Assembly: GCF_000023965.1 (NCBI RefSeq)
Contig: NC_013202.1
Coordinates: forward strand, 1,620,001 to 1,652,000
Source of the DNA: Halomicrobium mukohataei DSM 12286
Lineage (GTDB): Archaea > Halobacteriota > Halobacteria > Halobacteriales > Haloarculaceae
DNA: 32,000 bases
Direction: 5' to 3'
In this document: positions 10,513 to 26,093 of the stretch, one piece after another
Position numbering within the stretch: the stretch's first letter is position 1
Layout: each line of letters starts with the position of its first letter
Program-made: the position numbers and the translations under genes
The notes under the pieces: model-generated
The model's database searches: none
Told to the model about the DNA's origin: nothing
What the model saw: only the letters and a program-made list of their open reading frames with translations

Positions 10513-10515
10513 GAG

Positions 10516-10806: not shown

Positions 10807-10810
10807 ATGT

Positions 10811-11755: not shown

Positions 11756-12017
11756 AGCAAGAGCTGAAAACATATTTGACGTAATCACACATGGGGTTGC
11801 GCGTCGAGAAAATGGCTTCCTCCAATATGAACACGAGACTGGGTGACTCCGTGTTCATATTCGCCGGTCGCCCTCGATCGTGACCACGAATCTCCTCGGC
11901 AGTTCAGCACTTCACCCCCAAATCGGGCCGAAATGACCCGTCCAGTGAGTCGAAAAACTAGGATTCTGTGGTCGTGTTCATAGATATCAGACACCGTTTA
12001 GCTTTCACGATTATTAT

Positions 12018-13015
12018 ACGCTCTTGTGAAGCACGTTGTTGATTTTCAGAGTGCGGCGTTGAGAGCATGTTTGAGTGCTTCGTCACCTGGTTTTCTGTAG
12101 AGTTCACGGCGGAGTTCGAAGGCTCTGAGATACGGCGTTAGCTTGTCTTTCGAGACGCCTCGATGGGGCGAGAGCCACCGTCGCGTCAGCGACGCGTGGC
12201 TCTCGCAGCCGTTGACGTGTACTTCGCCATCAGCGTATTCACCGTCGCTGTGGACGACGTATTTGCGGGTGAATGAGTCGTCGTCTTCTAGTGGGTCGTA
12301 GGCCCGAAATCCGTCCGTATAGACGGTCAGTGACTCCTCTTCGTGGTCAGCAAGCAGGAGTCGAACGGTCGATTCGTCAGCGGATTTCGCTGGCACGACG
12401 TACCGCTCGTCCGAACCACGATCGACGAGCGTGAACACCGGCGGTTTGTCGCCGTCGTACGATCCCCGTCCACGCGTGGACAGGCCACGCGAGCGCGACT
12501 CCTGGTCACGCTCGCGGCCTTTGAGACCAGCAGAGACGTACACTTCGTCGATTTCGACCGGTCCAGACAGCGTAATCGAAGGCGCGTCGAGAGTTCTGGC
12601 GAACTGCTCGACGTGCCGTCTCACCGTCCGGTAGGAACAATCAAGCTCTGCCTCGATTTGCCGAATACTCGTGTTGAACCGTAAGAACACGTAGATCGTG
12701 AAGTACCATTCTTTGAGCTTCAGCTTCGAGTGAGCGAAGATCGTGTCGGTCTTGTCGTTGAACGTGCGACCGCAATTCTTACACAGATACCGTTGATACA
12801 CCCGGTAGCTGCCGTTTCTGACCGTCAGGTCAGAACGGCAGCGGGGGCACTCGACGCCATCACGCCAGCGAACCTGTTCCAGCAGGTCCGCTGCAGCCGA
12901 TTCCGACACGAACCGGCTTATTGGGAACATATCGGGCACCGCTAGCGCGGTGCCCTTGCCCTCTTCGACTTTCAGCTCCAGCCATCGCTATCAACAATCT
13001 CCTTCGCAAGAGCGT
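12018..13015 (-). mobile_element. IS1595-family insertion sequence (ISH4-like), 998 bp
   Basis: Imperfect 26-bp terminal inverted repeats with 22/26 matches (ACGCTCTTGTGAAGCACGTTGTTGAT versus ACGCTCTTGCGAAGGAGATTGTTGAT). It has a single transposase ORF and is flanked by TATTAT on both sides (12012-12017 and 13016-13021). Confidence 0.8.
12046..12939 (-). CDS. IS1595-family DDE transposase
   Basis: N-terminal transposase zinc ribbon (CPRCRS...CKNCGRTF), then a DDE region (EIDEVYV...LTVYTDGFRAYD...VNGCESHASLTRRWL). This is the organisation typical of IS1595/ISH4-group transposases. Confidence 0.9.
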   Translation of the reverse strand: MPDMFPISRFVSESAAADLLEQVRWRDGVECPRCRSDLTVRNGSYRVYQRYLCKNCGRTFNDKTDTIFAHSKLKLKEWYFTIYVFLRFNTSIRQIEAELDCSYRTVRRHVEQFARTLDAPSITLSGPVEIDEVYVSAGLKGRERDQESRSRGLSTRGRGSYDGDKPPVFTLVDRGSDERYVVPAKSADESTVRLLLADHEEESLTVYTDGFRAYDPLEDDDSFTRKYVVHSDGEYADGEVHVNGCESHASLTRRWLSPHRGVSKDKLTPYLRAFELRRELYRKPGDEALKHALNAAL

Positions 13016-13156
13016 TATTATATGTCTGCCCGAATCATATACTATCAGATCAATATTTTAGTTAAATCTGTGAAGAATATACGGAGTTTGTATTCAAAGA
13101 GATTCGAAATCTATTGTTAGAGTCGATAAGAGTCATAATTTTGGTGTCCCGCCTTC

Positions 13157-13186
13157 AGGTCCAATGCCACAAGTGGCATTGGACCT
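13157..13186. repeat. Perfect 14-bp inverted repeat with a 2-nt spacer (AGGTCCAATGCCAC AA GTGGCATTGGACCT)
   Basis: Read directly from the sequence. It is located in AT-rich non-coding DNA between the IS and the RelE-like module. Confidence 0.7.
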
Positions 13187-13346
13187 ACAGACTACATAAA
13201 ACTTTCCTAGTCTCAGAACCGTAACGGAACTCGATATGTTGGTGGCTCTGAGCTACTGTTTAGACCTATCCGTGATCGTCTAGTAGCTGAGTAGCCTAGT
13301 GGCCTAGTAATTTATCAACTAGCAACCGCTTGTCCTAGACACGCTA

Positions 13347-13487
13347 ATGAGCACCTTCGACGAAGACAAGAAACACGAGCCGGAACTTGGAAACGGTGAT
13401 AGCCTCTCTGAGCGGCTCGATTCTATTGATCTCGATGAAGACGATACCTGCTCTACTGACGATCTTCGGGACAAACTCGATCTGTAG
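13347..13487 (+). CDS. Small acidic ORF (46 aa), possible antitoxin partner
   Basis: MSTFDEDKKHEPELGNGDSLSERLDSIDLDEDDTCSTDDLRDKLDL. TTTATC lies 31-36 nt upstream. The ORF ends 8 nt before the RelE-like gene and is below the track cutoff. Confidence 0.35.
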   Translation: MSTFDEDKKHEPELGNGDSLSERLDSIDLDEDDTCSTDDLRDKLDL

Positions 13488-13495
13488 CGGACTTA

Positions 13496-13834
13496 TTGAT
13501 GGGGGAGATAGAAGCCGTCGAGAATGTTGAGGAGTGGGTGTTGAGAGACCTCAAGAGTTCGAGTTTTAGTGATGAAGAACGGGAAGATGCAGTTGAGGGG
13601 ATAGAGAAGGTCGAAAAAGATCTTGTCACTTGGGGACGGCCGATTCTGAAAGTTCTAACAATCGTAGAGCACACGGGTGACAAGACGGTCTATCGGTATC
13701 GAGATGATCCGCTTAGGCTCTTCTTCATCCGAAAAGGAGAGACTATGTACTGTATCGGCGTCGGAAAACGGAAAACGACGTACGATCGGGACTTGGATCA
13801 GTTCAGTGATCGAGCAGACAACCATCCACCCTGA
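13496..13834 (+). CDS. RelE/ParE-like toxin-fold protein
   Basis: The C-terminal half HTGDKTVYRYRDDPLRLFFIRKGETMYCIGVGKRKTTY follows the RelE/ParE pattern G..lYR.R.gd.R.i........i....g.R...Y. It has an extra acidic N-terminal extension of about 40 aa. Confidence 0.5.
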   Translation: MMGEIEAVENVEEWVLRDLKSSSFSDEEREDAVEGIEKVEKDLVTWGRPILKVLTIVEHTGDKTVYRYRDDPLRLFFIRKGETMYCIGVGKRKTTYDRDLDQFSDRADNHPP

Positions 13835-14422
13835 TTACAGCCACTCGACTTTCTCCCGCTCCCGAAGCTGTGCCTCGGGGCTGTGCGTTCCCCGGTAGTG
13901 GTCCAGGAACGTCTCCAGGTCGTCCCAGCCGCCCCAGTCGCAGACGACCATCGCGTCAACGTCGGCCGACCGGAGGCTCGTCGCCCACGTTCGTCGGAGA
14001 TCGTGCATCCCGACATGTTTCCAGCCGGGTTCACTAGTCTCCTCAGCCAGTTGATCGCGTGCTCTGGATATCCAGCGACGTAGTGACCGTTTGCTGGACT
14101 GAATCACCGGTTCATCAGTCGGCTCCTCACGGATGTCTCCCACCGTTCGTATGGTTGTCGCTAAGTCGGAGGGAATCGGCGTCTCACGGTAGTGTCCAGT
14201 CTTCGCTGATTCCCACACCCGAAGCATCTTCCCAGCATCCGTATCTGCGACGTGATCGGGAGCGACACGCACAACTTCGTCGGTTCGAAGGCCACAGTGG
14301 GCCGCCAGTTGGATAGCTACGCGCCACTCGGTTTCATCGGAATGGTCCAGCAGTTGATTGACCTCTCGTTCAGATAACCATGCCTTCATTCCGTCTTGTT
14401 TTTCGTATTCTTCGAGGTTCAT
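13835..14422 (-). CDS. Short tyrosine recombinase (catalytic domain only)
   Basis: 195 aa. Motifs seen: LSEREVNQLL...LAAHCGLRTDEVVRV (Arg), HDLRRTWAT (HxxR) and FLDHYRG (Tyr). There is no N-terminal core-binding domain. Its stop abuts the stop of the RelE-like gene. Confidence 0.85.
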   Translation of the reverse strand: MNLEEYEKQDGMKAWLSEREVNQLLDHSDETEWRVAIQLAAHCGLRTDEVVRVAPDHVADTDAGKMLRVWESAKTGHYRETPIPSDLATTIRTVGDIREEPTDEPVIQSSKRSLRRWISRARDQLAEETSEPGWKHVGMHDLRRTWATSLRSADVDAMVVCDWGGWDDLETFLDHYRGTHSPEAQLREREKVEWL

Positions 14423-14581
14423 CTGTTGTCCGGTAATTCTCCTTTGCGGTCAGAAATCCTAGAAAGTTCCGGTCGTGGACCCCCAATCAGGGGCCAGATG
14501 GGGGTGATTCTGTCCGACTCTGTGCCGAGAGGCGGACACCAGAAGAGCAAAACTGTCGCAGAAAAGCTTGGGTGTGATCCT

Positions 14582-15007
14582 TCAGTAGGGGTTCACTGCG
14601 CTATTCAGGCGTGTGACGCCGTCGATCGAGTCGAAGTCGTCGTCGAAGCTATAGATATACTCGATGTTCTCAGACTCCATGAACGCAGTCTGCATACTGT
14701 CGCCGAAGTTCAGGCCGGGATAGCCACGAAACAGGGATCGACCGAGGCCGAAGTTCTTCTTCGGATTGTACTGCAGCTCGAAGTGTGCGCCCTGTACGAA
14801 GCGGTCGAGGAGGTCGACGGCGCGGTCATGGCCTTTTCGCTCCTCGACGAAATTCAGCGTCTCAAGCAACGCTTCGTTGGTGATGACGCCATCGGGCAAC
14901 TCTCCGTAGTCGATCCCGCGCAGAATCTCCAGTCCACGCTGGTGGTCAGCGTCGTCACGATCCGCCGCAGCAATGAGGGCAGTGGCATCTAAGAGTGCCC
15001 TGCTCAT
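14582..15007 (-). CDS. vapC: PIN-domain ribonuclease toxin VapC
   Basis: LLDATALIA..D.DD...(E)...D..SFDDDFD is a typical PIN acidic-residue layout. It overlaps the upstream antitoxin gene by 4 nt. Confidence 0.85.
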   Translation of the reverse strand: MSRALLDATALIAAADRDDADHQRGLEILRGIDYGELPDGVITNEALLETLNFVEERKGHDRAVDLLDRFVQGAHFELQYNPKKNFGLGRSLFRGYPGLNFGDSMQTAFMESENIEYIYSFDDDFDSIDGVTRLNSAVNPY

Positions 15008-15249
15008 CGCTCCTCTCCGCTCGTGTTGTGGGCGGTCCCGCCGTCTCCTCCCATCGACATGGGTTCGAAGTCATCGAAGACACCTTCGCGCTGGTGGACG
15101 ACCTCCACCATCACGTCGCCCTCTTCGACGGTCCAGCGGATCTTGTCTCCCGCTTCGATGCTGAGTGCCTCTCTGATCTCGGAGGGGATCGTGACGCCAC
15201 CACGTTCACTCACGGTCGTCTCGTCGCTGGTTCCCATATTGATAGCCAT
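15004..15249 (-). CDS. vapB: AbrB/SpoVT-type antitoxin VapB
   Basis: TVSERGGVTIPSEIREALSIEAGDKIRWTVEEGDVMVEV is a swapped-hairpin AbrB-like motif. It is the classic partner of VapC. Confidence 0.85.
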   Translation of the reverse strand: MAINMGTSDETTVSERGGVTIPSEIREALSIEAGDKIRWTVEEGDVMVEVVHQREGVFDDFEPMSMGGDGGTAHNTSGEER

Positions 15250-15315
15250 GTGCTGTGGTCAGTTAAGCCTCATGTGGTTTCTCATGTGCCACGCTGGGGA
15301 AAGAACACAGGAGCT

Positions 15316-15543
15316 TCACGACCTGCTCCGCTTCCTCTCGTCGCCGTCGACGGCGTCGGCCATCGCCTCCTGCTCGTCGGTCCCCGGCGGGGGCCGGTAC
15401 GGGAGCTTGCTGGCGACCGCTCGCCCGAACCCTTCGAGCCGCTCCATCCCGTAGCGGGTCGGGACGGCCATGCCACCGAGGAACATCAGCAGGCCGAACG
15501 CGACCGTCTGCGTGTCGGGGAGCGCAGGTAGGACTGCCTGCAT
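15316..15543 (-). CDS. Small membrane protein (75 aa)
   Basis: MQAVLPALPDTQTVAFGLLMFLGGMAV... contains one TM segment. Its ATG overlaps the TGA of the upstream gene. It is embedded in a longer spurious track ORF (15316-16128). Confidence 0.5.
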   Translation of the reverse strand: MQAVLPALPDTQTVAFGLLMFLGGMAVPTRYGMERLEGFGRAVASKLPYRPPPGTDEQEAMADAVDGDERKRSRS

Positions 15544-15752
15544 CACGATCCCTCCCCGATTGCGTCGGCGTCCACGTCGTAGGTCGGCCCCTCGTCGTGA
15601 ACGCCGAAGGCCCGCAGGAGCGCCCTGAGCCGCTTGCGGTTCGATCGCGACCGCTGGGCCGTCCGTCGCAGCACCTCCAACTGTGCGAGCTCGATAGCGA
15701 CCAGCACGGACAGCAGTGCCGCGACCGTCCCAAGACCGATGCTCATGCCCAT
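15543..15752 (-). CDS. Small membrane protein (69 aa)
   Basis: N-terminal TM segment (IGLGTVAALLSVLVAIELA) followed by a basic then acidic tail. The start overlaps the upstream TAA (TAATG). Confidence 0.5.
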   Translation of the reverse strand: MGMSIGLGTVAALLSVLVAIELAQLEVLRRTAQRSRSNRKRLRALLRAFGVHDEGPTYDVDADAIGEGS

Positions 15753-16204
15753 TAGAGCAACCCTCCGATGGCGTCCCCGGCGTCCTCGACCGTGTCGGCC
15801 GCGCCGCCGGTCGCCCAGCTAAAGCCGTTACCGGCCGCGTCACCAGCACCCTCGACCGTGTCGGCAGCGCCGCCAAGCCACCAGTCCATCCCGTCGCTGA
15901 CAACGTCGCCGGTGCCGTCGGCCACGTCCGTCGCACCGTCCCAGCTATCGCCAGCAGCGCCGCCCACGTCATCCGCGGCATCCTGTGCGCCGTCAGCCAC
16001 GTCGCTGCCGACGGTGACGGCAGTGTACACGTAGTACAGTAGCCCGAGACCGATAACCACCATGAGGATCTGCCCGCCGCGAGACTCCGCGACCTGACGG
16101 GCATCGGCGCTGCCCTGCTTGGCAACATCGGCCACCTCGTCGGCGTTATCGGCGAGCGCGCCGCCGGCCGCTGCTGCCGCTGGAGCCGGACTCACCGCGA
16201 CCAC
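15752..16204 (-). CDS. Gly/Ala/Asp-rich membrane-anchored repeat protein
   Basis: Central TM segment (ILMVVIGLGLLYYVYTAVTV). The C-terminal region has repeated GGAADTVE(G/D)AGDA units. GTG start. Confidence 0.5.
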   Translation of the reverse strand: MVAVSPAPAAAAAGGALADNADEVADVAKQGSADARQVAESRGGQILMVVIGLGLLYYVYTAVTVGSDVADGAQDAADDVGGAAGDSWDGATDVADGTGDVVSDGMDWWLGGAADTVEGAGDAAGNGFSWATGGAADTVEDAGDAIGGLL

Positions 16205-16755
16205 CCCCAGATCGCGACCAGTAGCGCGATCGCCCCGACTGCACCGACTGCCTCGATCGGCAGGCCGGCCGGACCGGTCGGTGATCTGTCTGAGGAATCC
16301 GACGTGTCGGTACCGGGCGTCCCGTCGCCCGGCCAGTCGGTCGAGCCATCCGGAGCGGTGGTCCCTCGATCCGCCTGACTGGAGTTCGGAGTGCCGTCAG
16401 TCCTGCTATCCGGTGTGGTCACCACCGCATCGGCAGATCCGTCGCCATCGGTGTCCTCGACGCCCTCAGACGGGCCAACAGTCGTGTCGCTGCTGCCCTC
16501 GTTGCGGCCGCTGATGATCGTGTGATCCGAGCCGTTCGTTCCTGAGCCCGAATCTGGGTTCGGGTCCGGGGGCGAATAACCGTCGTCGCGCGAGTCGTCA
16601 GTCTGCCGGTCGATGAGGTCCTGTGTCTGCTCCGATCCGCGACTCGACGACGAACTGCTCGGCGACGAGCCGGTGCTGTCGTCTGACTCGGAGATCGCCC
16701 CGTCGGGGCTGATATCCTTCCCGGTAGCCTGTTCCCATCTCTCGACTGCGTTCAT
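16192..16755 (-). CDS. Low-complexity Ser/Thr/Asp/Gly-rich surface protein with C-terminal TM anchor
   Basis: The body is probably extracellular and disordered. The C-terminus reads PAGLPIEAVGAVGAIALLVAIWGWSR. This resembles an archaeal C-terminal anchor and is PGF-CTERM-like but not canonical. Confidence 0.55.
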   Translation of the reverse strand: MNAVERWEQATGKDISPDGAISESDDSTGSSPSSSSSSRGSEQTQDLIDRQTDDSRDDGYSPPDPNPDSGSGTNGSDHTIISGRNEGSSDTTVGPSEGVEDTDGDGSADAVVTTPDSRTDGTPNSSQADRGTTAPDGSTDWPGDGTPGTDTSDSSDRSPTGPAGLPIEAVGAVGAIALLVAIWGWSR

Positions 16756-16828
16756 CGCTCGATACCTCTGCTCTGAGTGTTGCTGTCGTTCATAATTGTA
16801 TCACCATAGATTCGGTGCCGGTAGTCGG

Positions 16829-17476
16829 TCACGAGAGGGACCCTCCGAGATTACCCCCACGGCCGACGCTGAGCCCCTTGAGCTTCACCGGATCGAGGAC
16901 GATCTGCGCAGTATCGTCCAGCGGCCCGATGGGCTCTTGGAGAGGGTTGCCGTCGTCGTCGACGGCGGGATTGAACCACGTGTACCGGACACCGTCGGGG
17001 CCGTTGGCTCTCCGGGCCACGCCCATGAACGTGGTGTAGGTCGTCGACAGACAGGGCAGATCGCCCCGAGCGTCGTCGTCGATCGCGGCCGCCGTCGGGA
17101 ACACGCCGGCAGACATCACCCACTCGACTTCCGGCAGCGGGTTGCCGTCCGGATCGACTACCTCCACAGCGACGGGCCGGAAGGCTGCGGGAATGAGGAT
17201 CCCACTCTGGTCGGTGCTCTCGGCGTGATCTCGACGGCGGTGGGGCCGCGGTCGGACCGTGTCGGTCGTCGCCGCCCCAGCTGCATGGCCGGTGCGCTCT
17301 GGCCGCGGCCGCACTGTGTCAGCCGTGACAGCCCCCGACGGGGCTACCCTACGGGACGTGTCGGGCCGGTTCTGGCTCGACGTGGCTGCCGAGGCCGACG
17401 TGGCCGTCCGCGAGTCGTCGCTGTCGCTCAGCGATCGGGCACTCGCCGCCGTCGGTGCCTCTGTGAACGTCGCCAT
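16829..17476 (-). CDS. Virion-associated or hypothetical protein with an internal TxDTVRPRP repeat
   Basis: Starts at MATFTEAP, 4 nt after the upstream stop. It contains the tandem TADTVRPRPE / TTDTVRPRPH. The C-terminal half is acidic and beta-rich in appearance (DPDGNPLPEVEW...DDDGNPLQEP). Confidence 0.55.
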   Translation of the reverse strand: MATFTEAPTAASARSLSDSDDSRTATSASAATSSQNRPDTSRRVAPSGAVTADTVRPRPERTGHAAGAATTDTVRPRPHRRRDHAESTDQSGILIPAAFRPVAVEVVDPDGNPLPEVEWVMSAGVFPTAAAIDDDARGDLPCLSTTYTTFMGVARRANGPDGVRYTWFNPAVDDDGNPLQEPIGPLDDTAQIVLDPVKLKGLSVGRGGNLGGSLS

Positions 17477-17480
17477 CGGG

Positions 17481-18371
17481 TCACTCCATCGCGATGCCGA
17501 CCTGTGCCACGTTGTGTGCCTTGCACAGCTTGTACAGGTTGTTCGCGCTCTCGTCCTGGATCGTGTCTTCGTGGCTGGCGTCGTCGCCCGATTCTTCTCG
17601 AACCCACATCGAGTGCGTCCCGATGATGGCGTCATTCCCGTCGTTGTTCTGGTACTGGCCCGAACACACCACGTTGTCCGTCGTCGTGTAGTTCGCGAAG
17701 TTGTTGTCCGGGTTCACCTGCCCTCGACCGTGCTGGCTGCTGCCCGATTGCGTTCCGGGCATCGCGCTCAGGAAGTTCGTCCAGTTGCGTGAGTGGCGGT
17801 CATCGTAATCAGTGTCGTAACACTGTGCGTGCCAGAGAACTGCGTAATTGCTCTCTCGGTTGGCGGCCGCGTCGAAGTCCCAGGTCTCTGCGAGTCGGGC
17901 CATCCCGATCGCCATATCTTCGTCGTTGCCGTCTCCGACGTTCCGCTCGACGTAGAAGGCCCACCCGTCGGTGTCGGAGTAGTCGAGATAGTAGCTCACG
18001 CTGTCCCCTTCGTCGATGATCTCTCCGCCCCTATCGTCGGGCGCATATCCCATCGGATCATCATAATCGTCTCTGCCGGTCTCAGCAGCCACGTCGTGCG
18101 CGTAGCGATCGGCCCACGTCGAGTTTGCCGAGTCCCAACTGGGACCGTGTTCCATTCGGATCGCTCCAGCGTACCCATTGTCGAGTACGAAAATCTGGAA
18201 ACACTCGCCGTTCGGTGCGCTGATGACGAACCACTCCCCGTCGGCGATGCTCTCGGCGTCGCCGTTCGCTGAGGTGTCTTCGAGCGACCAGTTGGTCATC
18301 CCGGCGATGTTGTCTCTGAGTGCCGCCAGTGCTTTGCCCCACGTCGTCGCGATTGGTCCTTCGAAAGTCAT
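17481..18371 (-). CDS. Acidic protein, candidate spike or receptor-binding structural protein
   Basis: 296 aa, rich in D/N/G/W/Y (...GWAFYVERNVGDGNDED...NPDNNFANYTTTDNVVCSGQYQNNDGND...). The call rests on its position in the late-gene train downstream of the capsid-sized ORFs. Confidence 0.6.
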   Translation of the reverse strand: MTFEGPIATTWGKALAALRDNIAGMTNWSLEDTSANGDAESIADGEWFVISAPNGECFQIFVLDNGYAGAIRMEHGPSWDSANSTWADRYAHDVAAETGRDDYDDPMGYAPDDRGGEIIDEGDSVSYYLDYSDTDGWAFYVERNVGDGNDEDMAIGMARLAETWDFDAAANRESNYAVLWHAQCYDTDYDDRHSRNWTNFLSAMPGTQSGSSQHGRGQVNPDNNFANYTTTDNVVCSGQYQNNDGNDAIIGTHSMWVREESGDDASHEDTIQDESANNLYKLCKAHNVAQVGIAME

Positions 18372-18372
18372 G

Positions 18373-18828
18373 TTATCGTAGTGCCAACACTTTCAGAGTG
18401 GTGTCGGCGTCACTCTCGGTCATCTTTCGGTACCACAGCTTTGAGGCGTTGAGTCCACCGGGTGGGCTGAGCGAAAACGGCGCTTCCGAGGCCGTCAGCG
18501 GGATCTCGCGGTTGGTCCCGGTCTGCTGGAACGAGACCAGCACCGGCCCATCGAAGCCCCACACGGTGACCGTATCGGCGGGGAACCCCCAGTCGAGACT
18601 CTGCTGGCCGACGCCGTCGACGGCGACCGGCACCTCAGTCACGAAATACGTCGGCTCGTCGCTGGTGCTGGTCTCGCCGAGATACTGGTCGCCACGCTGG
18701 TCGAGCAACAGCGCGAGCAGGAGCCGGTCCGTGTCGCTCTCCAGCAGATCCTCGTGCCAGGAGTCGGCTCCGATACCGTACTCGGACAGCACCCGCTCGA
18801 TGACGCTGTCAGGGCCGACAGTGCTCAT
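18373..18828 (-). CDS. Hypothetical structural-module protein
   Basis: 151-aa acidic ORF whose stop is 1 nt upstream of the next gene's start. Confidence 0.6.
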   Translation of the reverse strand: MSTVGPDSVIERVLSEYGIGADSWHEDLLESDTDRLLLALLLDQRGDQYLGETSTSDEPTYFVTEVPVAVDGVGQQSLDWGFPADTVTVWGFDGPVLVSFQQTGTNREIPLTASEAPFSLSPPGGLNASKLWYRKMTESDADTTLKVLALR

Positions 18829-18859
18829 TGGCTCATCACCACGTCGTTGCTGTTGTGAA

Positions 18860-19123
18860 TCATATCGTACCGTCCTCCATCGCCGTGTACAGCAGCAGTA
18901 CGAGCATGCACAGGGTGCTGGCCAGCAGCAGGTCGTCTCGGTTGATCGGACGCCCCCGGAGGATCTCGTCCAGCGCCGAGTCGTCCGGTCCGTACTGTTG
19001 GCCGTCTCGCTGACCAGTGCTCGTCGTCGCTGCTGCGGTGCGTGGCTCTCCGGGTGGATTGCGACCGGTGCCAGATGCTTCTCGTCCGGTTACGTCTCGT
19101 GTAACAAGTCCGCCGGACGGCAC
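18860..19123 (-). CDS. Small membrane protein (C-terminal TM)
   Basis: The TM segment is LLLASTLCMLVLLLYTA. It starts 4 nt after the stop of the 242-aa ORF. Confidence 0.5.
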   Translation of the reverse strand: MPSGGLVTRDVTGREASGTGRNPPGEPRTAAATTSTGQRDGQQYGPDDSALDEILRGRPINRDDLLLASTLCMLVLLLYTAMEDGTI

Positions 19124-19127
19124 GGCT

Positions 19128-19856
19128 CTACCTCCGTGCCGCGTCAGTCGCCACTGCCTGCTTCAGCCCGTCGATAGGGCCTTCTGCTCCGCGGACAGGC
19201 AGGTCAGTGAGCGCGTTCGTTGCGACCACCTCAGTCCCCGATCCGTTCGCGTCCGTAGCGAACGCGACCGTGTACGGGGCCGTGATGGTGAGTGCGAGCG
19301 TGAAGTCCGCCGGAATGAACGGATGGAGCGGGGACTGATCGGCGTCGACGGTGATGGGCTCTTTGCCCTGGTCCCGACGGTGGATCATCCCCATGTCTGC
19401 CGAGAAGAGAACGTCCGGCGTCCCGTTGGGTGCGACCTTCTGAATCTCCACGAGCGCCTGCGCACCGCTCGTGTAGTAGATCGTGAGCGTGTTGTCCGTC
19501 CCGTCGTCCGTGTAGGTGATCTGGTCGGCGGCGTAATCGACCGAGTCCGGTTGAACGCGGTTGTCGCCCTTGTACATCACCACGGAGTCGGTGACCACGC
19601 TCGAATCGATCAGTTCGTGAGTCAGGGGGAACGTCTCGGCGTCTCCGGCGTTTCCGTCGGTCGTGAACGTCTCGCGAGCCACCAGCGACAGGTCGAACGG
19701 ACGGGTTGCGTCGACGGACAGCGCCCGCTTGGGCTGGTACTCCGCGACGGTCGTTGGCTGTCCGGGCGATCCCGTCGAGAAGCTGAAGTCACCGTTCGTG
19801 ATGTTGTCGCGGCTGGTGTTGGCCTCCCGAAGACGCTGCATGATCTGCTCGTTCAT
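19128..19856 (-). CDS. Candidate large major capsid protein (single jelly-roll, VP4-like by size and position)
   Basis: 242 aa, beta-rich in appearance and acidic. It lies immediately downstream of a 160-aa ORF and of the packaging ATPase. This mirrors the ATPase, small MCP, large MCP order of SH1/SNJ1-type viruses. No sequence match could be tested. Confidence 0.45.
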   Translation of the reverse strand: MNEQIMQRLREANTSRDNITNGDFSFSTGSPGQPTTVAEYQPKRALSVDATRPFDLSLVARETFTTDGNAGDAETFPLTHELIDSSVVTDSVVMYKGDNRVQPDSVDYAADQITYTDDGTDNTLTIYYTSGAQALVEIQKVAPNGTPDVLFSADMGMIHRRDQGKEPITVDADQSPLHPFIPADFTLALTITAPYTVAFATDANGSGTEVVATNALTDLPVRGAEGPIDGLKQAVATDAARR

Positions 19857-19860
19857 GCTG

Positions 19861-20343
19861 TTAGTCCTCCGCTCGGACGGTCACGGCCTTGCGGTCGATC
19901 TCCAGGCGCGAGTTGTCCCAGTCGATCTGCTTCGACGATCGGATGGCGACCTGTACCTCCTCGAAGTCGAGCACGACCAGGCCGTCCCCGTTCAGTTCGG
20001 TTCGAGTCTGTTCTCGGTACTCCTCGTTCTGCTGTTCCTTGAGCGAGAGCGTCCGGTACTGTCGGATGTTGCTCAGGCGTTCGCTCACGATCATCGGCTG
20101 ATCCCGACTCGGGGTGTCCCACCGCAGGAACACCTCGGTGTCGCGAGGCAGGTCGTTCCCGTCGGCGTCCTTCAGCTCGGCGTAGATGGGGACGCCAGAA
20201 CCGCCGTACACGTGATTGTCGATCTCGATGACGAGCCCGTCGACGGGCGACCACGTGAGGATCGTGCTGTCGGTGTCTGGGATGTTCGTCTCTTCCGTCG
20301 CGTCGACCTTCGCGCTGCCGAGGTTGGTCAGACTCTCCGACAT
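19861..20343 (-). CDS. Candidate small major capsid protein (VP7-like by size and position)
   Basis: 160-aa acidic, beta-rich-looking ORF. It has a 4-nt gap to the 242-aa ORF, and its start overlaps the upstream stop. Confidence 0.45.
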   Translation of the reverse strand: MSESLTNLGSAKVDATEETNIPDTDSTILTWSPVDGLVIEIDNHVYGGSGVPIYAELKDADGNDLPRDTEVFLRWDTPSRDQPMIVSERLSNIRQYRTLSLKEQQNEEYREQTRTELNGDGLVVLDFEEVQVAIRSSKQIDWDNSRLEIDRKAVTVRAED

Positions 20344-20606
20344 CAGTTACCCTCCGAGACCCGAGCGCGGAGTTCCTCCAGAACGTTGATGCCGCCGCCG
20401 ATGGCGACCTTCCGGCCAGCGCCACCGTAGAGCGCGCCGCCAGCGGCGACTGTCGCCCCGTAGGCTTCGTTCGGGAGGTCCCGTCCCATCTTGTTCTCGA
20501 CTGCGTACTGCACAAGTTCCGGTGCCATGTACCCGCCGCCGATGAGGGCCACGTCCATCACGTAGTCCTCCGAGGCGAGCGTGTCGATTGCATTACTAAA
20601 TTCCAT
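20343..20606 (-). CDS. Small Gly-rich protein, possibly membrane-associated and structural
   Basis: 87 aa with GGG/AAGG stretches (VALIGGGYMAP...ATVAAGGALYGGAGRKVAIGGG). Confidence 0.5.
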   Translation of the reverse strand: MEFSNAIDTLASEDYVMDVALIGGGYMAPELVQYAVENKMGRDLPNEAYGATVAAGGALYGGAGRKVAIGGGINVLEELRARVSEGN

Positions 20607-20698
20607 GCAATCCGGATGTGTGGGTGTAGAGCCTTCAACGAGCCACGAAACGAGGAATAACGGATACTGCCTCGTACAGCACCATGCTGTACACTACT

Positions 20699-20839
20699 TC
20701 AATACGGAGCAGCGTCCATCAACACGCGGACCACTTCGGCGTTGCTCGGCCGGCCCCCTGGCCGTTGCTGCTCGATCGTCTCGCGGAGCTGCTCGAAGTC
20801 CTGGCTGTCCGTCCCCTGGAGAGTGATTTGCGTTCTCAT
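20699..20839 (-). CDS. Small RHH-like ORF (46 aa), below the track cutoff
   Basis: MRTQITLQGTDSQDFEQLRETIEQQRPGGRPSNAEVVRVLMDAAPY fits a beta-helix-helix pattern. Its ATG overlaps the TGA of the ATPase gene (ATGA). Confidence 0.4.
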   Translation of the reverse strand: MRTQITLQGTDSQDFEQLRETIEQQRPGGRPSNAEVVRVLMDAAPY

Positions 20840-21666
20840 TCTGGCATCTTGATGCTCTTACCCGGCGCGCCGACGTGCTCGCTGTCCATGTCGACGTTGG
20901 CCGAGTTCATCCGTCGCACTGTGCCGCTGTCGTCCGAATAGATCCACTCCGAGCCGGTGACTATGTCGCCGTCCGTCCACTTCCGCACCGAGACCGGCCC
21001 TCCGTCGTCGGCGTGGAGGTCGTCGGGAAGGCCCGGCACGCGGTGGCCGCCCGACCGGTGAAGGTCCTGCGGGTAGTCCACTACACCGCCGATCTTTGAG
21101 AGGTCGCGGTCGCTCTCGAAGCCCCCGAGTTTCCGGGCGGTACACTGGGCGATGATCGTCTCTGCCAGCTCTGAGAGCCGTTGAGTTACCCAGATACTCG
21201 ACTGGCCCTCGCCGCGCCCGGTCGTCGCCAGCCCCTTGATGGGGTCGAGGAGCTTCGCCTGTTGCTGGGCAACGAAGTGGGCTTCGTCGATGACCCACAG
21301 CACCGATAGGGACGACCGCCGACCGGCACTGATCGCCTTCGCACAGACCGCTCGCCACTGTTCAGGCGACAGGTGCGAGTGGCGGGCCAGCACGACGTTG
21401 CCGTTCTGCTCGATCAGCTGCCGGAAGTGATCGGTCGACCACTGCTCGGCTTCGACGGGGCCGGCGATCCAGTGCTTGGCCTTCCCGGCCTTGACGAGAC
21501 CGCGGTACTCGTCCTTGTAGTCCAGCAGCACCACGCCGTCGTACTCCCCGAGGTTGCTTTCCGTGGTCGCCTGACAGACGTAGGACTTCCCCCATCCGCT
21601 CGCCGCTGCGAGGAGCAGATTCACGCCCCACACCCCGCGAGTCCGAGAGACGAACCAGCCAGCCAC
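20836..21666 (-). CDS. FtsK/HerA-type genome-packaging ATPase
   Basis: Walker A in LLLAAASGWGKSY and Walker B in LSVLWVIDEAH. At 276 aa it has the size of packaging ATPases of membrane-containing icosahedral viruses. Confidence 0.75.
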   Translation of the reverse strand: MAGWFVSRTRGVWGVNLLLAAASGWGKSYVCQATTESNLGEYDGVVLLDYKDEYRGLVKAGKAKHWIAGPVEAEQWSTDHFRQLIEQNGNVVLARHSHLSPEQWRAVCAKAISAGRRSSLSVLWVIDEAHFVAQQQAKLLDPIKGLATTGRGEGQSSIWVTQRLSELAETIIAQCTARKLGGFESDRDLSKIGGVVDYPQDLHRSGGHRVPGLPDDLHADDGGPVSVRKWTDGDIVTGSEWIYSDDSGTVRRMNSANVDMDSEHVGAPGKSIKMPE

Positions 21667-21699
21667 GCGATGGCACCAAGTAGGCCGATCAATTCGCCG

Positions 21700-21978
21700 T
21701 CACTCATCGTCGCCATTGCCCTCCTTGACGTGCTCGCCATCGAGCCGGAGCGTGTCGCCGCCGGAGGTCCTGATGCGCCGCTGCTCGCCGTCCTCGATCA
21801 CGTCGAGATCCAGGTCGGTCAGAACAGCGTGGTCCGGGTACTCGTCGGGATCGGCAGGCTGGTCGCTCCGAGCCTGCGAAACCAGCAGATCGAGCAGTAG
21901 CGCGACGATCAGCACCCACGCTACGGCTTCGGCCGTCTTCCTCACCTGTCTGGTCGTCGAGGGCAAGTTCACATTCAT
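21700..21978 (-). CDS. Small membrane protein
   Basis: N-terminal TM segment (AVAWVLIVALLLDLLV) with an acidic tail. It overlaps the upstream gene by 4 nt. Confidence 0.55.
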   Translation of the reverse strand: MNVNLPSTTRQVRKTAEAVAWVLIVALLLDLLVSQARSDQPADPDEYPDHAVLTDLDLDVIEDGEQRRIRTSGGDTLRLDGEHVKEGNGDDE

Positions 21979-22553
21979 GCCAGCGCCTCCGTGTTCGCGT
22001 AGATCGCCTGTTCTGTGGCCTCACTCGGGCCGGCCAGCAGGTCGGTAACGGCCCGCCGACGGTCCCACTCGACCACCGCCTCCTCGAACCGATCGAGCGA
22101 GACGCCCCACTGTGCGCTGACGTGTCGATCCGCCAGCGTCCGATCCGCTTGTCCTTCGATCCCCGCCTGGTGTCGCACCGCGTCGGCCCAGCGGGCGATC
22201 TGGTCCTGCCACTCGCCTGGCTCCATCTCCGCGTAGGTCGCCAGTATCGCCGGGTCACTCACGTCGAGATCGTCGGGAGCACACCGCGACAGCCAGATTT
22301 CGGCCAGCGAGGGGCCGCCGGGGGTCCGGGCGGCAATCACGTCGCAGAGTTCGGCCACGCGCTCCTCCACGTCGAGGTCGGTCACGCTGTCGTCGGGGTC
22401 GATCCCCAGCCGCTCGCGCTGGTCGAGCACGGCCGCCCGCTGCTGGGCTTCGATCTCGGCCAGTACTCGGGCGTGGGCCGTGATCCGCTCGGAGTTGTGA
22501 GGGTCGTTCAGGTCGCCTTTCATCTGCCGTAGCTGCTTCATTCGCTCCATCAT
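21975..22553 (-). CDS. Hypothetical acidic helical protein
   Basis: 192 aa with 4-nt overlaps at both ends. It has typical halophilic composition. Confidence 0.6.
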   Translation of the reverse strand: MMERMKQLRQMKGDLNDPHNSERITAHARVLAEIEAQQRAAVLDQRERLGIDPDDSVTDLDVEERVAELCDVIAARTPGGPSLAEIWLSRCAPDDLDVSDPAILATYAEMEPGEWQDQIARWADAVRHQAGIEGQADRTLADRHVSAQWGVSLDRFEEAVVEWDRRRAVTDLLAGPSEATEQAIYANTEALA

Positions 22554-23125
22554 AGCTGTAGGTTCAGGTCGTCGGTGAGGTCACTGATCGCGTCCTGTGC
22601 CACGTCGGTCTCGGTGAGTACGATCACCAGCGCGAGGCCGGCGGTCCCGATGGCCACCTGCTTGCCCGGCGAGAAGTCCATCTCCATACCGCTCTCCGCG
22701 AGCCACTGGTCGACCGCGTCGTCAAGCTCGACCGGCGGCGACCGGGCCAGTTCCTCGATCGCTTCGGCGTCCTTGCTGGTCTCTCCGTCGCTGGACTCCG
22801 CGATCTCCCCCAGCAGTAGAGAGAGCATCATCACGTACTGGTCGCCCCACGACTCGCCGTCTGGGACGGTCGGCTGTGCAGTGCTCTCAGTGTTCTCGTC
22901 GTCGCTGGTGTCGCCCTCGTCGTCATCCTGTTCGTCGGCCCCAGCGCCAGCTTCCTCCTCGATGGCGTCGGTATCGAGGTCGAGGTCGTCGAGGTCCACG
23001 TCGGCCCGCTCGTCGTCCTCAATCGCCGGCCGGTCATCTTCGGTCTCCTCCGGCTCCGGTTCGGGATCCGGAGCCTGCTCCTCGGGCTGCTCCTCCTCGA
23101 CGGCGTCAGCATCCGCGCTCATCAA
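22550..23125 (-). CDS. Highly acidic hypothetical protein with a hydrophobic C-terminal segment
   Basis: The N-terminal half is almost entirely D/E/P/A. The C-terminus includes QVAIGTAGLALVIVLTE. Translationally coupled. Confidence 0.6.
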   Translation of the reverse strand: MMSADADAVEEEQPEEQAPDPEPEPEETEDDRPAIEDDERADVDLDDLDLDTDAIEEEAGAGADEQDDDEGDTSDDENTESTAQPTVPDGESWGDQYVMMLSLLLGEIAESSDGETSKDAEAIEELARSPPVELDDAVDQWLAESGMEMDFSPGKQVAIGTAGLALVIVLTETDVAQDAISDLTDDLNLQL

Positions 23126-23703
23126 AACACCTCCTCGGGTGTTTCGCCGTCGTCTACGGGTTCGGCGGCCGTGCTCTCCACCTCGATCGGTTCCTGCTCG
23201 TCGTCACTGTCGGAGCTGGTCGCGAGCGCCACGACCACCGCGAGCAGCACGGTCCCGACGAGGATCACCGCCCCCGAGCGGCCGCTACCACCGCTTTGAG
23301 CGTGGTCGTCCTGATCGTCCGTCCCGCTGCCGTTGGTGCTTTCACCACTGCTCTCCCCGCTCGTTTGCTGTAGCTGTTGCTCGTACTCGTCGGATTGGTC
23401 CATCTCGTCGCCCTCCTCGGGCTGCTCGTTTCCCGCTTCTGTGCCGCTGTCAACACCCTCTACTGGTGCTTCGCCCTGCTCGTCGTCCTCGTCTTCCTCG
23501 GTAGCGGCCGCTCCACCGGTGCCGGGCGGGTCGTCGTCGCTGTCACCGCTCTCGTCGACGCCCATCAGCGCCGCTCGAAGTGCTTCCATGTCCTCGTGAG
23601 CGGCGTCTTTCTTCGCGTTGATGTGCCGCCGGACACTCTCTTTGCTCTTTTCGCCGTCTTCGTTGTAGTCGCACCCCTCTGCGGGGCAAATTGGTCCTGT
23701 CAT
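23122..23703 (-). CDS. Hypothetical acidic protein with a TM segment
   Basis: N-terminal CPAEGC motif and an acidic linker containing DEQGEAPVEGVDSGTEAGNEQ. The TM segment is AVILVGTVLLAVVVALA. Confidence 0.6.
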   Translation of the reverse strand: MTGPICPAEGCDYNEDGEKSKESVRRHINAKKDAAHEDMEALRAALMGVDESGDSDDDPPGTGGAAATEEDEDDEQGEAPVEGVDSGTEAGNEQPEEGDEMDQSDEYEQQLQQTSGESSGESTNGSGTDDQDDHAQSGGSGRSGAVILVGTVLLAVVVALATSSDSDDEQEPIEVESTAAEPVDDGETPEEVF

Positions 23704-24998
23704 AACTCACTGATCGTCCCCTGTTCGGGGTCGTGAAACTGCTGCTGGTCGGTGCTCTCGGTGCCGTTCTCTGCCCCCATCGAGGGGTCGTCTCGTTCGT
23801 CGGCGAGGAGACCGCCCCGGTTGACCGGTGCTTCAGCGGTGCTTTCTCGCCCCTGAGCGGTGCGGGTATCCGCTTCGACTGCCAGTGCCGTCTGCTGGTT
23901 TTGCTGCTCTCGCTCCCCGGACAGGTCGACCTGCGCGCTTTCGGCCCCCTGAAGCACCTGCTCGTTCTCCGCTTCTGTGCTGCTGTCAGCACCCTCTACT
24001 GGTGCTTCGCCCTGCTCGTCGCTGTCAGTGCCGGCGACCACCTGCCGAATGTGCTCGCGGTCCCCCTGAGTGACGGGGTGCGAGTGGTCGCTGTGGTCGG
24101 CGTGGCACTCGTAGCAGTCGGCGGCCATCTGCCGGGCCAGGTCCATCAGGTCGGCCTGTGATCCCTCCAGCTTCTCGAAGTGAAGGGGCTGCTGGCCGAC
24201 GGTCTCCCGAATCTCGTTGATTGTTCGGGCGGCCTGCTGTGCGTGGACCCATTCGTTGGCCAGCGTTTCGAGGGCGTCGTCGACGGCGTCGAGCGCCCCG
24301 AGGTAGCCGTTCCACGCCTGCTTGAGCGCGCCCTTCTGCTTGCCCGTCAACTCCTCGGACTTGACCGCCTCGCCCTGTTCTACCTCCTCGGGCTTCGAGG
24401 GAGCCGGGCGGTCGTCCGGTGCCCGCTGGGCCAGTAGCATCTCCTGCACGTCGTCGAAGTCGTACTGGCAGGTCTCGGTGAGGAACTCGCAGGCTTCGGG
24501 ATCACCTGCCTCGCAGTGGCCCCGTGCGTGGTCGCATCGCTCGCCCTTTGCCGTCTGGGCAGCGTCAGCGGCCTTCTCGTCGGCACTCTCCTGCTCGTCG
24601 GTGCGCTTGCCGCTCTCGCGGCTGGCGTCGGCCATCACCTCGCGGTGTTCGTCGACAGTCAGAGTGCCGTCGTAGTAGCTCACCCAGTCCTCGACACCCT
24701 CGGACCGAGCGATCCCCTTGACCGCCTTCGCGTGGGGAACCGAGGCGCGTGCCTTCCCGAAGTCGATCCGGTCACGCTCGCCGTCACTGAGCGGCACCTG
24801 ACCGGGACCGTCGCTCCCTTCGCCCCGACTGTCTTCTGCTTCGAGGCGCTCGGCGTCAAGCACATGGTCCGGCGTGTCGGCGTCGGAGTAGGCGACGGTC
24901 TTCAGCCGCCGGTCGTCGTCGGTACACAGATACTCCTCGTGTCGGTCTCTCGCGGCGTCTGCCGCGTCCTTGGTTCCATACTCGATACGTGTCGTCAC
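23700..24998 (-). CDS. Large hypothetical protein with Cys/His clusters
   Basis: 432 aa with clusters CDHARGHCEAGDPEACEFLTETC and CYECHADHSDHSH. It contains DEQGEAPVEGADSSTEAENEQ, duplicated from the downstream gene. No recognisable replicase motifs were seen. Confidence 0.65.
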   Translation of the reverse strand: MTTRIEYGTKDAADAARDRHEEYLCTDDDRRLKTVAYSDADTPDHVLDAERLEAEDSRGEGSDGPGQVPLSDGERDRIDFGKARASVPHAKAVKGIARSEGVEDWVSYYDGTLTVDEHREVMADASRESGKRTDEQESADEKAADAAQTAKGERCDHARGHCEAGDPEACEFLTETCQYDFDDVQEMLLAQRAPDDRPAPSKPEEVEQGEAVKSEELTGKQKGALKQAWNGYLGALDAVDDALETLANEWVHAQQAARTINEIRETVGQQPLHFEKLEGSQADLMDLARQMAADCYECHADHSDHSHPVTQGDREHIRQVVAGTDSDEQGEAPVEGADSSTEAENEQVLQGAESAQVDLSGEREQQNQQTALAVEADTRTAQGRESTAEAPVNRGGLLADERDDPSMGAENGTESTDQQQFHDPEQGTISEL

Positions 24999-25120
24999 GG
25001 GGGAGAAGTCACCACCATACCCCTAACCGGGACGTAGAACGTGTTGGGTGGCTGGACCACTCCGAGTACGAGTATATATTCGGATACAGACTTTTTACTA
25101 ATCAGATTCTAGAAGGTTCC

Positions 25121-25390
25121 ATGTCGCAGCGGCAAGTGAGATACAACGTTGGTCGGGCGCTGTCGGACAGTCCGGTGGTGCCCCTTGGTGATGCAAAAGC
25201 GCAGGAACAGGGCGGTTCTTCGGTCTACGTGCCATATCCGCAACCCCACGCCCGGAATCAGGGCATCGAGCAGAGTAGTGAAGTGGAGCTGGCACTGCTC
25301 GCTGGGACTGGGGTTATCATGGTCGCACCGTCTGGGTTCGACTGGGATACGCTCGAAAAGCAGGGTGAGCCGTTTACTGCCGGTCAGTAG
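25121..25390 (+). CDS. Small protein, possible AbrB/SpoVT-like regulator; the only plus-strand gene in the GC-rich viral part (about 14.6-27.5 kb)
   Basis: 89 aa. GSSVYVPYPQPHARNQGIEQSSEVELALLAGTGVIMVAP resembles a looped-hinge AbrB-type strand pattern. TTTTTAC lies 25-29 nt upstream of the ATG. The gene is divergent from the 24998 gene. Confidence 0.45.
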   Translation: MSQRQVRYNVGRALSDSPVVPLGDAKAQEQGGSSVYVPYPQPHARNQGIEQSSEVELALLAGTGVIMVAPSGFDWDTLEKQGEPFTAGQ

Positions 25391-26093
25391 CCGTGCTCAC
25401 GTCGCGGCTGTTCCCGCCGTCCGCAACCGCGAATAAAGTCTGCTGTTCTTGGCGGCCTTCAACGGCTCGAAGAATGCTTTCGGATAGCTCGTGTGGGACT
25501 TTCGCACGTTCCGCTGGGTCGCGTGGGTACGGGTCTTCTGTGTTCGCACAGCCGCCGTGCGTGTTGGATTCGTGGCAGTCGTCGGCGTAGCCGCACCACC
25601 GATACTCGAAGCCCTGTGGGTGGTCTCCCCACAGGTCGGTGGGTTTCATCACGTCCTCTCCGTACTGGCAGTAGCTGACGGTGCCGGCAGGCTGACCGAG
25701 TATCCAGCGCAGCCGGCCGACGGGGTTTTCGAGGAACCAGTAGTCGGGCGAGATCGCCTTGATGAGCCCGACGATGTGGTGCGTGAGTGTGATGTGCTTC
25801 CGGGTCTTCGGGTGGTCCGGTTCCTTCGTCTCCGGGTTCCAGTACTTCTCCGACGGGCACGCCTTCGAGAACGTAGTACACGGCGGGCTGGCGAGGACGA
25901 TGTCGGCGGCCGGCAGATCTGCCGGCCGGAGGTTGAGCACGTCCGCGCAGATGTCCGGCTCGAACTCCTCTTCTATCTCAACGGTGACGACTCGCCAGTT
26001 TTCGGCGTCCTCGAAGGCCGACGAGAACCCGCCCAGGCCAGCGCAGAGGTCCAGACAGATTCGTTCAGTCCCGCTTCCAGACTGCTCAGTCAT
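25374..26093 (-). CDS. DNA (cytosine-5)-methyltransferase, compact form
   Basis: Motif I in ICLDLCAGLGGFS, motif IV in LASPPCTTFS (PC dipeptide) and motif VI-like FLENPVG. The start at MTEQSG gives an 8-nt overlap with the upstream gene. The track start at 26129 is also possible. Confidence 0.8.
   Translation of the reverse strand: MTEQSGSGTERICLDLCAGLGGFSSAFEDAENWRVVTVEIEEEFEPDICADVLNLRPADLPAADIVLASPPCTTFSKACPSEKYWNPETKEPDHPKTRKHITLTHHIVGLIKAISPDYWFLENPVGRLRWILGQPAGTVSYCQYGEDVMKPTDLWGDHPQGFEYRWCGYADDCHESNTHGGCANTEDPYPRDPAERAKVPHELSESILRAVEGRQEQQTLFAVADGGNSRDVSTATDRQ

Follow-up and report, generated by a model that had tools for sequence, protein, structure and literature searches.

We analysed a stretch of 32,000 nucleotides (the window) of the chromosome of Halomicrobium mukohataei DSM 12286 (NC_013202.1, positions 1,620,001 to 1,652,000). 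The window has a GC content of about 65%, lower in two islands (5-8 kb and 10-14.5 kb), and it contains an element of 19,421 bp, at 8139-27559, lying between two copies of a short attachment (att) core at a tRNA-Pro gene. An earlier note, made from the raw sequence, had described a train of "fifteen or so" minus-strand late genes at 15316-21978 and had likened it to the morphogenesis modules of SH1- or SNJ1-type membrane-containing haloviruses. The gene train is real, with 14 open reading frames (ORFs) in that interval, and we consider it highly probable that the whole 19.4-kb element is the provirus of a temperate, tailless, icosahedral, internal-membrane double-stranded DNA virus of the SNJ1 type (Simuloviridae, formerly Betasphaerolipovirus). 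SNJ1 itself (Yingchengvirus SNJ1) is plasmid pHH205 of Natrinema sp. J7-1, and it was used for comparison together with NVIV1 and HJIV1.

The late operon and its capsid genes

A tblastn search of all annotated SNJ1, NVIV1 and HJIV1 proteins against the window gave a collinear series of matches, and 18 tightly packed minus-strand ORFs span 15316-24998. These genes, with the small ORF that diverges from them, are the following (MCP, major capsid protein; TM, transmembrane).

15316-15543, minus strand: 75-residue protein, homologue of HJIV1 ORF30 (tblastn)
15543-15752, minus strand: 69-residue TM protein (ORF and TM scan)
15752-16204, minus strand: 150-residue TM protein (ORF and TM scan)
last of four small genes in 15316-16755, minus strand: 187-residue Ser/Asp/Thr-rich protein with a C-terminal TM anchor
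16829-17476, minus strand: homologue of SNJ1 structural protein VP1, 215 residues (C-terminal half 50% identical by tblastn)
17481-18371, minus strand: homologue of SNJ1 structural protein PB1, 296 residues, Asp/Asn/Gly/Trp-rich (phrog_20439, E 3e-65; 36% identity over 95%)
18373-18828, minus strand: 151-residue homologue of NVIV1 ORF10, HJIV1 ORF27 and SNJ1 gp32 (42% identity to SNJ1 gp32)
18860-19123, minus strand: 87-residue TM protein, NVIV1 ORF07-like, in the position of SNJ1 gp28 (tblastn, TM segment)
19128-19856, minus strand: predicted large MCP, 242 residues, upright single jelly-roll (tblastn, AlphaFold and Foldseek)
19861-20343, minus strand: predicted small MCP, 160 residues, single jelly-roll (weak PF22024 VP16-like match, tblastn, Foldseek)
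20343-20606, minus strand: homologue of SNJ1 structural protein VP6, 87 residues, Gly-rich (tblastn)
20699-20839, minus strand: 46-residue conserved small protein in the position of SNJ1 gp24 (41-59% identity in NVIV1 and in related loci L005, L008 and L009)
20836-21666, minus strand: predicted genome-packaging ATPase with an FtsK/HerA-like P-loop, 262-276 residues by the start codon chosen (phrog_2666, E 5e-24)
first of five overlapping genes in 21700-24998, minus strand: 92-residue TM protein in the position of SNJ1 gp22 (TM segment)
21975-22553, minus strand: VP5 homologue (tblastn, weaker than for VP2)
22550-23125, minus strand: VP4 homologue (tblastn, weaker than for VP2; TM segment)
23122-23703, minus strand: VP3 homologue (tblastn, weaker than for VP2; TM segment)
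23700-24998, minus strand: VP2 homologue (44% identity, E 2e-64)
25121-25390, plus strand: small ORF divergent from the late operon, homologue of SNJ1 gp16 and NVIV1 ORF23

At the right, four further overlapping genes (21975-24998) belong to the train and carry the module 3 kb past 21978. The note had also given all junctions as 1-4 nt. This is so for most: neighbouring ORFs overlap by 4 nt at 21978/21975 and 20839/20836 and by 1 nt at 20343, 15752 and 15543, and gaps of 1-4 nt lie at 19856/19861, 19123/19128, 18371/18373 and 17476/17481, but four larger gaps measure 31-92 nt. The ORFs have a GC content at third codon positions of 0.67-0.87 and acidic products (isoelectric points 4.1-6.0), as is usual for haloarchaeal genes. 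The Gly-rich, 160-, 242- and 296-residue proteins described from the raw sequence are all present, as are its small TM proteins (a TM-like hydrophobic segment occurs in seven ORFs of the module, including the VP3 and VP4 homologues and the 92-residue protein) and low-complexity proteins with C-terminal hydrophobic anchors. A tiny ORF described as ribbon-helix-helix (RHH)-like is the conserved 46-residue gene, which has an NVIV1 homologue; the RHH label itself finds no support in Pfam or PHROGs.

Two mechanically listed ORFs, 15316-16128 and 16829-17635, have basic translations rich in Arg and were discarded as wrong or over-extended; the true genes at those sites are 15316-15543, 15543-15752, 15752-16204 and 16829-17476. 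The last of these, the VP1 homologue, begins with MATFT, as SNJ1 VP1 does, and aligns over its full length with the copy in Halomicrobium sp. IBSBa at 87% identity. Its N-terminal half contains the near-repeat TADTVRPRPER / TTDTVRPRPHR. In the annotation of CP045142.1, a Halomicrobium chromosome described below, the VP1 homologue is called as 112 residues only (L004 12690-13028), and the 87-residue TM protein at 18860-19123 has no call.

The comparison shows that the late operon at 15316-24998 encodes homologues of nearly all SNJ1 virion proteins, in the SNJ1 order. As in SNJ1, the genes run VP2, VP3, VP4, VP5, small TM protein, ATPase, tiny ORF, VP6, small MCP, large MCP, small TM protein, PB1 and VP1; unlike in SNJ1, the gp32 homologue precedes PB1 in the window. 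The 151- and 87-residue proteins of 18373-19123 reach 52-54% identity in tblastn with proteins of the three viruses.

Recognition of the capsid genes rests on both homology and fold. Among 50,697 phage records searched by tblastn with the 296-residue, 242-residue and ATPase proteins, matches were only to SNJ1, NVIV1 and HJIV1, with HHIV-2 in addition for the ATPase; the best E value of the large MCP in this search was 1e-38. Aligned with the large MCPs of the three simuloviruses, the 242-residue protein has 33-38% identity (E 1e-35 to 1e-42), and the 160-residue protein has 31-38% identity to their small MCPs by tblastn. The two adjacent genes are thus homologous to SNJ1 PB7 (small) and PB2 (large), with E values of 1e-21 to 1e-42, and the proposal that they encode the two MCPs is borne out. 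Identity to the SNJ1 large MCP is 34% for the window protein and 38-39% for NVIV1 and HJIV1, and judged by these alignments the element falls within the known divergence of Simuloviridae. The earlier note had spoken of a sparsely sampled group, and it is indeed one: among 5.8 billion clustered proteins, only 23 were homologous to the large MCP and 7 to the small one.

Single jelly-roll folds had been expected for both proteins. An AlphaFold2 model of the large MCP (pLDDT 92.2, pTM 0.86) had as its seven best PDB matches in Foldseek exclusively large MCPs of this lineage, P23-77 VP17 and the VP4 proteins of HHIV-2, SH1 and HCIV-1 (TM-score 0.62-0.72, E 4e-12 to 4e-9); further matches were noise. 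For the small MCP model (pLDDT 66.7), all 20 of the 20 best PDB matches were VP7 or VP16 small MCPs (E 3e-6 to 4e-4, TM-score about 0.6). Profile searches of the PDB pointed the same way, with SH1 ORF25 (VP4) at E 0.005 for the large MCP, and P23-77 VP16 at E 0.019 followed by the VP7 proteins of HHIV-2, SH1 and HCIV-1 for the small MCP. Pfam found little in the structural genes beyond a sub-threshold VP16-like match (PF22024) for the small MCP and generic AAA families for the ATPase.

The ATPase lies just upstream of the MCP genes and carries the Walker A and B motifs AAASGWGKS and VIDEAH, in the 276-residue form that had been read from the sequence. It is 40-44% identical to the annotated packaging ATPases of SNJ1, NVIV1 and HJIV1 (E down to 1e-54) and 28% identical, over 68%, to that of HHIV-2. 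It therefore groups with the simulovirus packaging ATPases, then with HHIV-2, and not with conjugation or partition ATPases. Pfam gave weak matches to generic AAA, Zeta-toxin and HerA families, and a PDB sequence search gave noise and weak HerA matches. The label "terminase large subunit" carried by phrog_2666 is the RefSeq naming of the HHIV-2 ATPase; in agreement with the earlier note, neither Pfam nor PHROGs found tail, portal, HK97-type or terminase genes in any ORF of the element.

Integration module, borders and accessory genes

The borders of the element are defined by the following features.

8139-8153: attL core, 15 bp (AGTGGGACCGCCGAG), identical to the tRNA-Pro 3' end and 63 bp past the integrase stop codon
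8217-9254, minus strand: SNJ2-type tyrosine integrase, 345 residues (weak Xer and Phage_integrase profile matches)
9247-9783, minus strand: 178-residue Cys-rich, zinc-ribbon-like protein (phrog_23992; conserved in L008; 8-nt overlap with the integrase start)
27545-27559: attR core, overlapping the 3' end of tRNA-Pro(GGG)
27546-27617, minus strand: tRNA-Pro(GGG)

The att core occurs exactly twice in the window, a count reached in none of 100 shuffles, and no third copy, which we sought as a sign of tandem elements, was found in the window at up to two mismatches. To the right of the tRNA gene stand host housekeeping genes (Cbf5/TruB, cytidylate kinase, EMC3/YidC-like, adenylate kinase and DUF2150), and the left flank, from 1 to 4.7 kb, also consists of host genes. 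With att repeats at tRNA-Pro and host genes on both sides, the element is integrated, as the earlier note had stated. Directly outside attL lies a low-GC island (4900-8138, 41-53% GC). It encodes a 502-residue protein (5523-7031, minus strand) whose C-terminus weakly matches HEPN/HepT, together with two small ORFs (7197-7785), and at this same hotspot it may represent an earlier integration or a defence island.

The SNJ2-type integrase family has been delimited by an identity above 30% and a coverage above 90% relative to the integrase of the pleolipovirus SNJ2 (PMC5861418). The window integrase lies within these limits, with 36.1% identity, 97% coverage and an E value of 9e-56; its identity to the integrase of Haloferax virus LSV-48N is 51%. 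Its catalytic residues R157, K187, H282, R285 and Y317 are invariant when it is aligned with the integrases of SNJ2, LSV-48N and Haloarcula salina. In the family described by Wang et al. in 2018, att cores of about 14 bp lie at tRNA 3' ends, a few tens of bases past int; tRNA-Pro is the target in one subgroup, and five elements of the family are present in H. mukohataei (PMC5861418). The element thus resembles SNJ2 in its R-K-HxxR-Y integrase and in the short core from a tRNA 3' end just downstream of int, but its integration module is joined to a capsid module of simulovirus rather than pleolipovirus type, and no Orf2 homologue is recognisable. The 178-residue protein was considered as such a homologue and rejected, the sequences having no similarity; it is a possible recombination accessory factor. 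Homologues of the SNJ2 accessory proteins occur in just 5 of 38 elements (PMC5861418), so that Orf2 and Orf3 do not define the family.

Between the integrase and the late operon, and again to its right, the element carries these non-structural genes.

9865-10131, minus strand: 88-residue putative repressor-like small DNA-binding protein (weak VapB and transcriptional-repressor profiles; conserved in L005, L008 and L012)
10189-10806, plus strand: two tandem winged-helix-type regulators, 107 and 96 residues (phrog_2440, E 1.7e-33 and 1.6e-21)
10811-11755, plus strand: low-GC cargo gene with a Hypoth_Ymh/TIGR02391 domain, 314 residues (absent from related proviruses)
12018-13015, minus strand: IS1595-family insertion sequence (transposase 12046-12939, NF033547, E 6e-44; 26-nt imperfect terminal inverted repeats)
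13835-14422, minus strand: second, short tyrosine recombinase, 195 residues, catalytic domain only (Phage_integrase, E 5e-17; integrase PHROGs)
14582-15249, minus strand: VapC (PIN) toxin and AbrB/MazE-type antitoxin, homologues of SNJ1 gp14 and gp15 (45% and 60% identity; PIN and MazE Pfam matches)
25374-27305, minus strand: early/regulatory block with a C5 DNA methyltransferase (251 residues), an RHH-like 155-residue protein and a 193-residue protein

The winged-helix regulators are conserved in loci L005, L007, L008 and L012. The IS1595 copy sits between them and the second recombinase, in a variable region, and together with the Ymh-domain gene it is an apparent late addition. The Ymh-domain protein has a weak match to PADLOC PD-Lambda-3_B and may be defence-type cargo. 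Counterparts of the short recombinase, 40-75% identical, occur in L005 (17803-18387), L007 (3085-3630) and L008 (16242-16823) and are absent from SNJ1, NVIV1 and HJIV1; one possibility for its role is dimer resolution. The C-terminus of the 193-residue protein matches SNJ1 gp7, a helix-turn-helix (HTH) protein, and NVIV1 ORF16. This protein and the 155-residue one, which adjoin attR (26086-27305), are 57-68% identical to their counterparts in L005, L008 and L009 (Halosimplex and Haloarcula salina), and the capsid proteins are less conserved among the same proviruses (36-50%).

Outside the late operon the element also shares with SNJ1 the divergent small ORF upstream of that operon, the VapBC pair, the gp7-like HTH protein and a similar genome size, isolated or episomal simulovirus genomes having 16.5-18.9 kb against the 19.4 kb found here. 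Unlike the SNJ1 plasmid, it is chromosomal, at tRNA-Pro, with an SNJ2-type integrase. It also has, in addition to the SNJ1 gene set, the short recombinase, the two winged-helix regulators, the C5 methyltransferase, the Ymh-domain gene and the IS1595 copy, and it lacks any detected homologue of the RepA rolling-circle initiator or the ORF4 regulator of SNJ1. NVIV1 likewise has no RepA. The replication mode of SNJ1 is cited as depending on salinity (PMC4958249).

Relatives and earlier descriptions

Related loci numbered at least eight in a scan of species-representative genomes with one peptide pattern, which returned no Halomicrobium genomes; this count is a lower bound. Five are on contigs of 0.6-4.8 Mb (two in Halosimplex, one each in Halobaculum, Haloarcula salina and a Halodesulfurarchaeum metagenome-assembled genome, MAG), and three are on MAG contigs of 4-20 kb (Haloferacaceae, uncultured Halobacteriales and Haladaptatus). 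In several of them the late operon is accompanied by an SNJ2-type integrase, both regulators and the short recombinase, and parts of that layout are found in Halosimplex and the Haloferacaceae MAG. A tRNA gene (Pro, Ala or Met) is present in six of the seven related loci scanned. In the Haloarcula salina provirus (17.2 kb) a 14-bp copy of the tRNA-Ala 3' end lies about 100 bp downstream of int, and in the Halodesulfurarchaeum MAG provirus (about 20 kb) a 21-bp copy of the tRNA-Pro 3' end is likewise downstream of int. Because the same layout recurs in these two proviruses, the short att of the window is independently validated.

The Halodesulfurarchaeum copy (L012) appears to be decaying, with only partial matches to the large MCP (residues 53-199), the ATPase and VP2; it is flanked by the 21-bp tRNA-Pro repeat and an extra 15-bp copy. 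A locus of Halomicrobium sp. IBSBa (L013, JADPQC010000005.1) has a large MCP 89% identical to that of the window, with a different integrase of 360 residues and another toxin-antitoxin set, so that exchange of integration and accessory modules seems to occur even among close relatives. Episomal relatives in PLSDB are HJIV1, NVIV1 and an 18-kb Haloarcula marina plasmid, and IMG/VR holds three related loci, all HJIV1-like.

Positions 9128-29856 of the window are identical to positions 2,272,234-2,292,962 of a Halomicrobium chromosome, CP045142.1, without a mismatch in 20,729 bases. Within H. mukohataei DSM 12286 itself the window MCPs have paralogues, ACV46614 and ACV46615, the small-MCP paralogue ACV46615 being 96% identical, and the chromosome very probably bears two such MCP pairs. 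Two SNJ1-related proviruses of this strain, HaloMukP1 and HaloMukP2, are reportedly first described by Jalasvuori et al. in 2010, in J Bacteriol 192:3231. Two later papers give these names (PMC4284463, PMC4958249), the first stating that they share genes with the betasphaerolipovirus SNJ1 (PMC4284463) and the second placing them in MCP and ATPase trees (PMC4958249). The element is very probably one of the two: they belong to the same species group, have an ATPase and two-MCP core related to SNJ1, and very likely share their chromosome with it. SNJ1 homologues have also been described in a 39-kb "ViPRE" locus at a tRNA-Ala gene of H. mukohataei (PMC3622292), which is presumably the other copy.

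Weighing the explanations

Several points count against an SNJ1-type provirus. The small MCP model is of moderate confidence (pLDDT 67), and BFVD, searched with the large MCP model, returned nothing at E <= 0.001. At 15 bp, the att core is short. No replication initiator (SNJ1/HJIV1 RepA, Orc1/Cdc6, primase or polymerase) was detected in 8139-27559 by tblastn or profile scans, and the IS1595 copy and low-GC cargo gene inside the element could point to decay. Finally, it is we who infer the identity with HaloMukP1 or HaloMukP2.

The lack of a detectable initiator and the foreign DNA inside the element bear also on the alternative that survives best, to which we give somewhat less than an even chance: an element of the same type that is a defective, immobile remnant, its capsid genes kept by recency of integration or by domestication, producing no infectious particles. 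SNJ1 RepA is absent, the related Halodesulfurarchaeum copy is clearly degraded, with a partial MCP, and relatives are very rare in viromes, with the three IMG/VR loci. On the other side, none of the 18 tightly packed late genes is interrupted or shortened relative to SNJ1, the two att cores match exactly and the integrase retains its catalytic residues. The insertion sequence lies in the variable region and not in a conserved gene, and the absence of RepA extends to NVIV1, so replication modules vary in the group.

That the locus is a mosaic of the ViPRE type, unrelated virus and plasmid cassettes having accreted at a tRNA hotspot, we regard as improbable. A 39-kb locus of this kind with SNJ1 homologues exists in the same species (PMC3622292), the integration module is of pleolipovirus type and the capsid module of SNJ1 type, and a further low-GC island adjoins attL. 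Yet the integrase, regulators, second recombinase and late operon are kept as a unit between tRNA-end repeats in other genera, the length of the element is near that of isolated or episomal simuloviruses, and there are only two att copies. The recurrence of the att layout elsewhere therefore favours one discrete mobile unit over a mosaic heap.

A relationship with the SH1-type viruses (Sphaerolipoviridae, alphasphaerolipovirus) instead of SNJ1 is very improbable. There are real likenesses to P23-77 (VP16/VP17) and to SH1, HHIV-2 and HCIV-1 (VP7/VP4): the predicted MCP folds (TM-score about 0.6-0.7), the order ATPase, small MCP, large MCP, an FtsK/HerA-like ATPase and, for HHIV-2, the 28% identity of that ATPase. 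However, the MCPs have only 13-23% identity to these viruses in structural alignments and reach the SH1-type MCPs by marginal profile matches (E 0.005-0.3), synteny is lacking outside the core, and sequence homology with synteny is confined to SNJ1, NVIV1 and HJIV1. Moreover, SH1-type genomes are linear with terminal proteins, whereas the window element is flanked by att sites and not by inverted terminal repeats; att flanks imply a circular form and not a linear genome. The "SH1/SNJ1-type" assignment of the earlier note is accordingly kept for SNJ1, by synteny and homology, and for SH1 at the level of fold or weak profile match; on these comparisons the kinship is specifically with SNJ1-type viruses.

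A non-viral plasmid or conjugative element, with the ATPase serving transfer or partition, could draw on the weak Pfam matches of the ATPase and on the PLSDB records of episomal relatives as plasmids, but it is effectively refuted by the homology and folds of both MCPs, by the absence of conjugation genes from the element in Pfam and PHROGs, and by the fact that those "plasmids" are genomes of SNJ1-type viruses.

For the SNJ1-type provirus that we favour, the following course can be proposed. By analogy with SNJ2, the integrase would have recombined a circular viral genome into tRNA-Pro, and on induction it would excise the viral circle; the att flanks imply such a circular form on excision. 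Like those of P23-77 and SH1, the two MCPs would assemble into pseudo-hexameric capsomers, in a capsid of small-MCP dimers and large-MCP monomers (by analogy with P23-77, SH1 and HHIV-2) over an internal membrane that contains the small TM proteins. Driven by the ATPase, DNA would enter the procapsid at a special vertex, PB1 and VP1 may be vertex or host-recognition proteins, and the VapBC pair, methyltransferase, Ymh-domain gene and IS1595 copy would be accessory cargo.

Publications have cited the SNJ1-related proviruses of H. mukohataei since 2010, and sphaerolipovirus phylogenies have included them, so that the element is an ordinary and already known one and the biological gain is small. 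The analysis does confirm that viruses with two single-jelly-roll MCPs can be recognised in raw sequence by their signature of ATPase, small MCP and large MCP. Mildly new are the precise delimitation of the element by a 15-bp att core at tRNA-Pro, the presence of an SNJ2-type integration module in a genome of simulovirus type, the recurrence of the integrated architecture across several haloarchaeal genera and the lack of a nameable replication gene, and these features make the element a reasonable candidate for induction work. To our knowledge, the classified simuloviruses are all episomal and plasmid-like. We see an even chance that the window element and its relatives in Halosimplex, Halobaculum, Haloarcula salina and others form a chromosome-integrating simulovirus lineage, in which the SNJ1-type plasmid/RepA module was exchanged for an SNJ2-type integration module and the short recombinase. 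If this is true, such a lineage would represent a module swap across virus families and a lysogeny strategy that has not been formally described for Simuloviridae.

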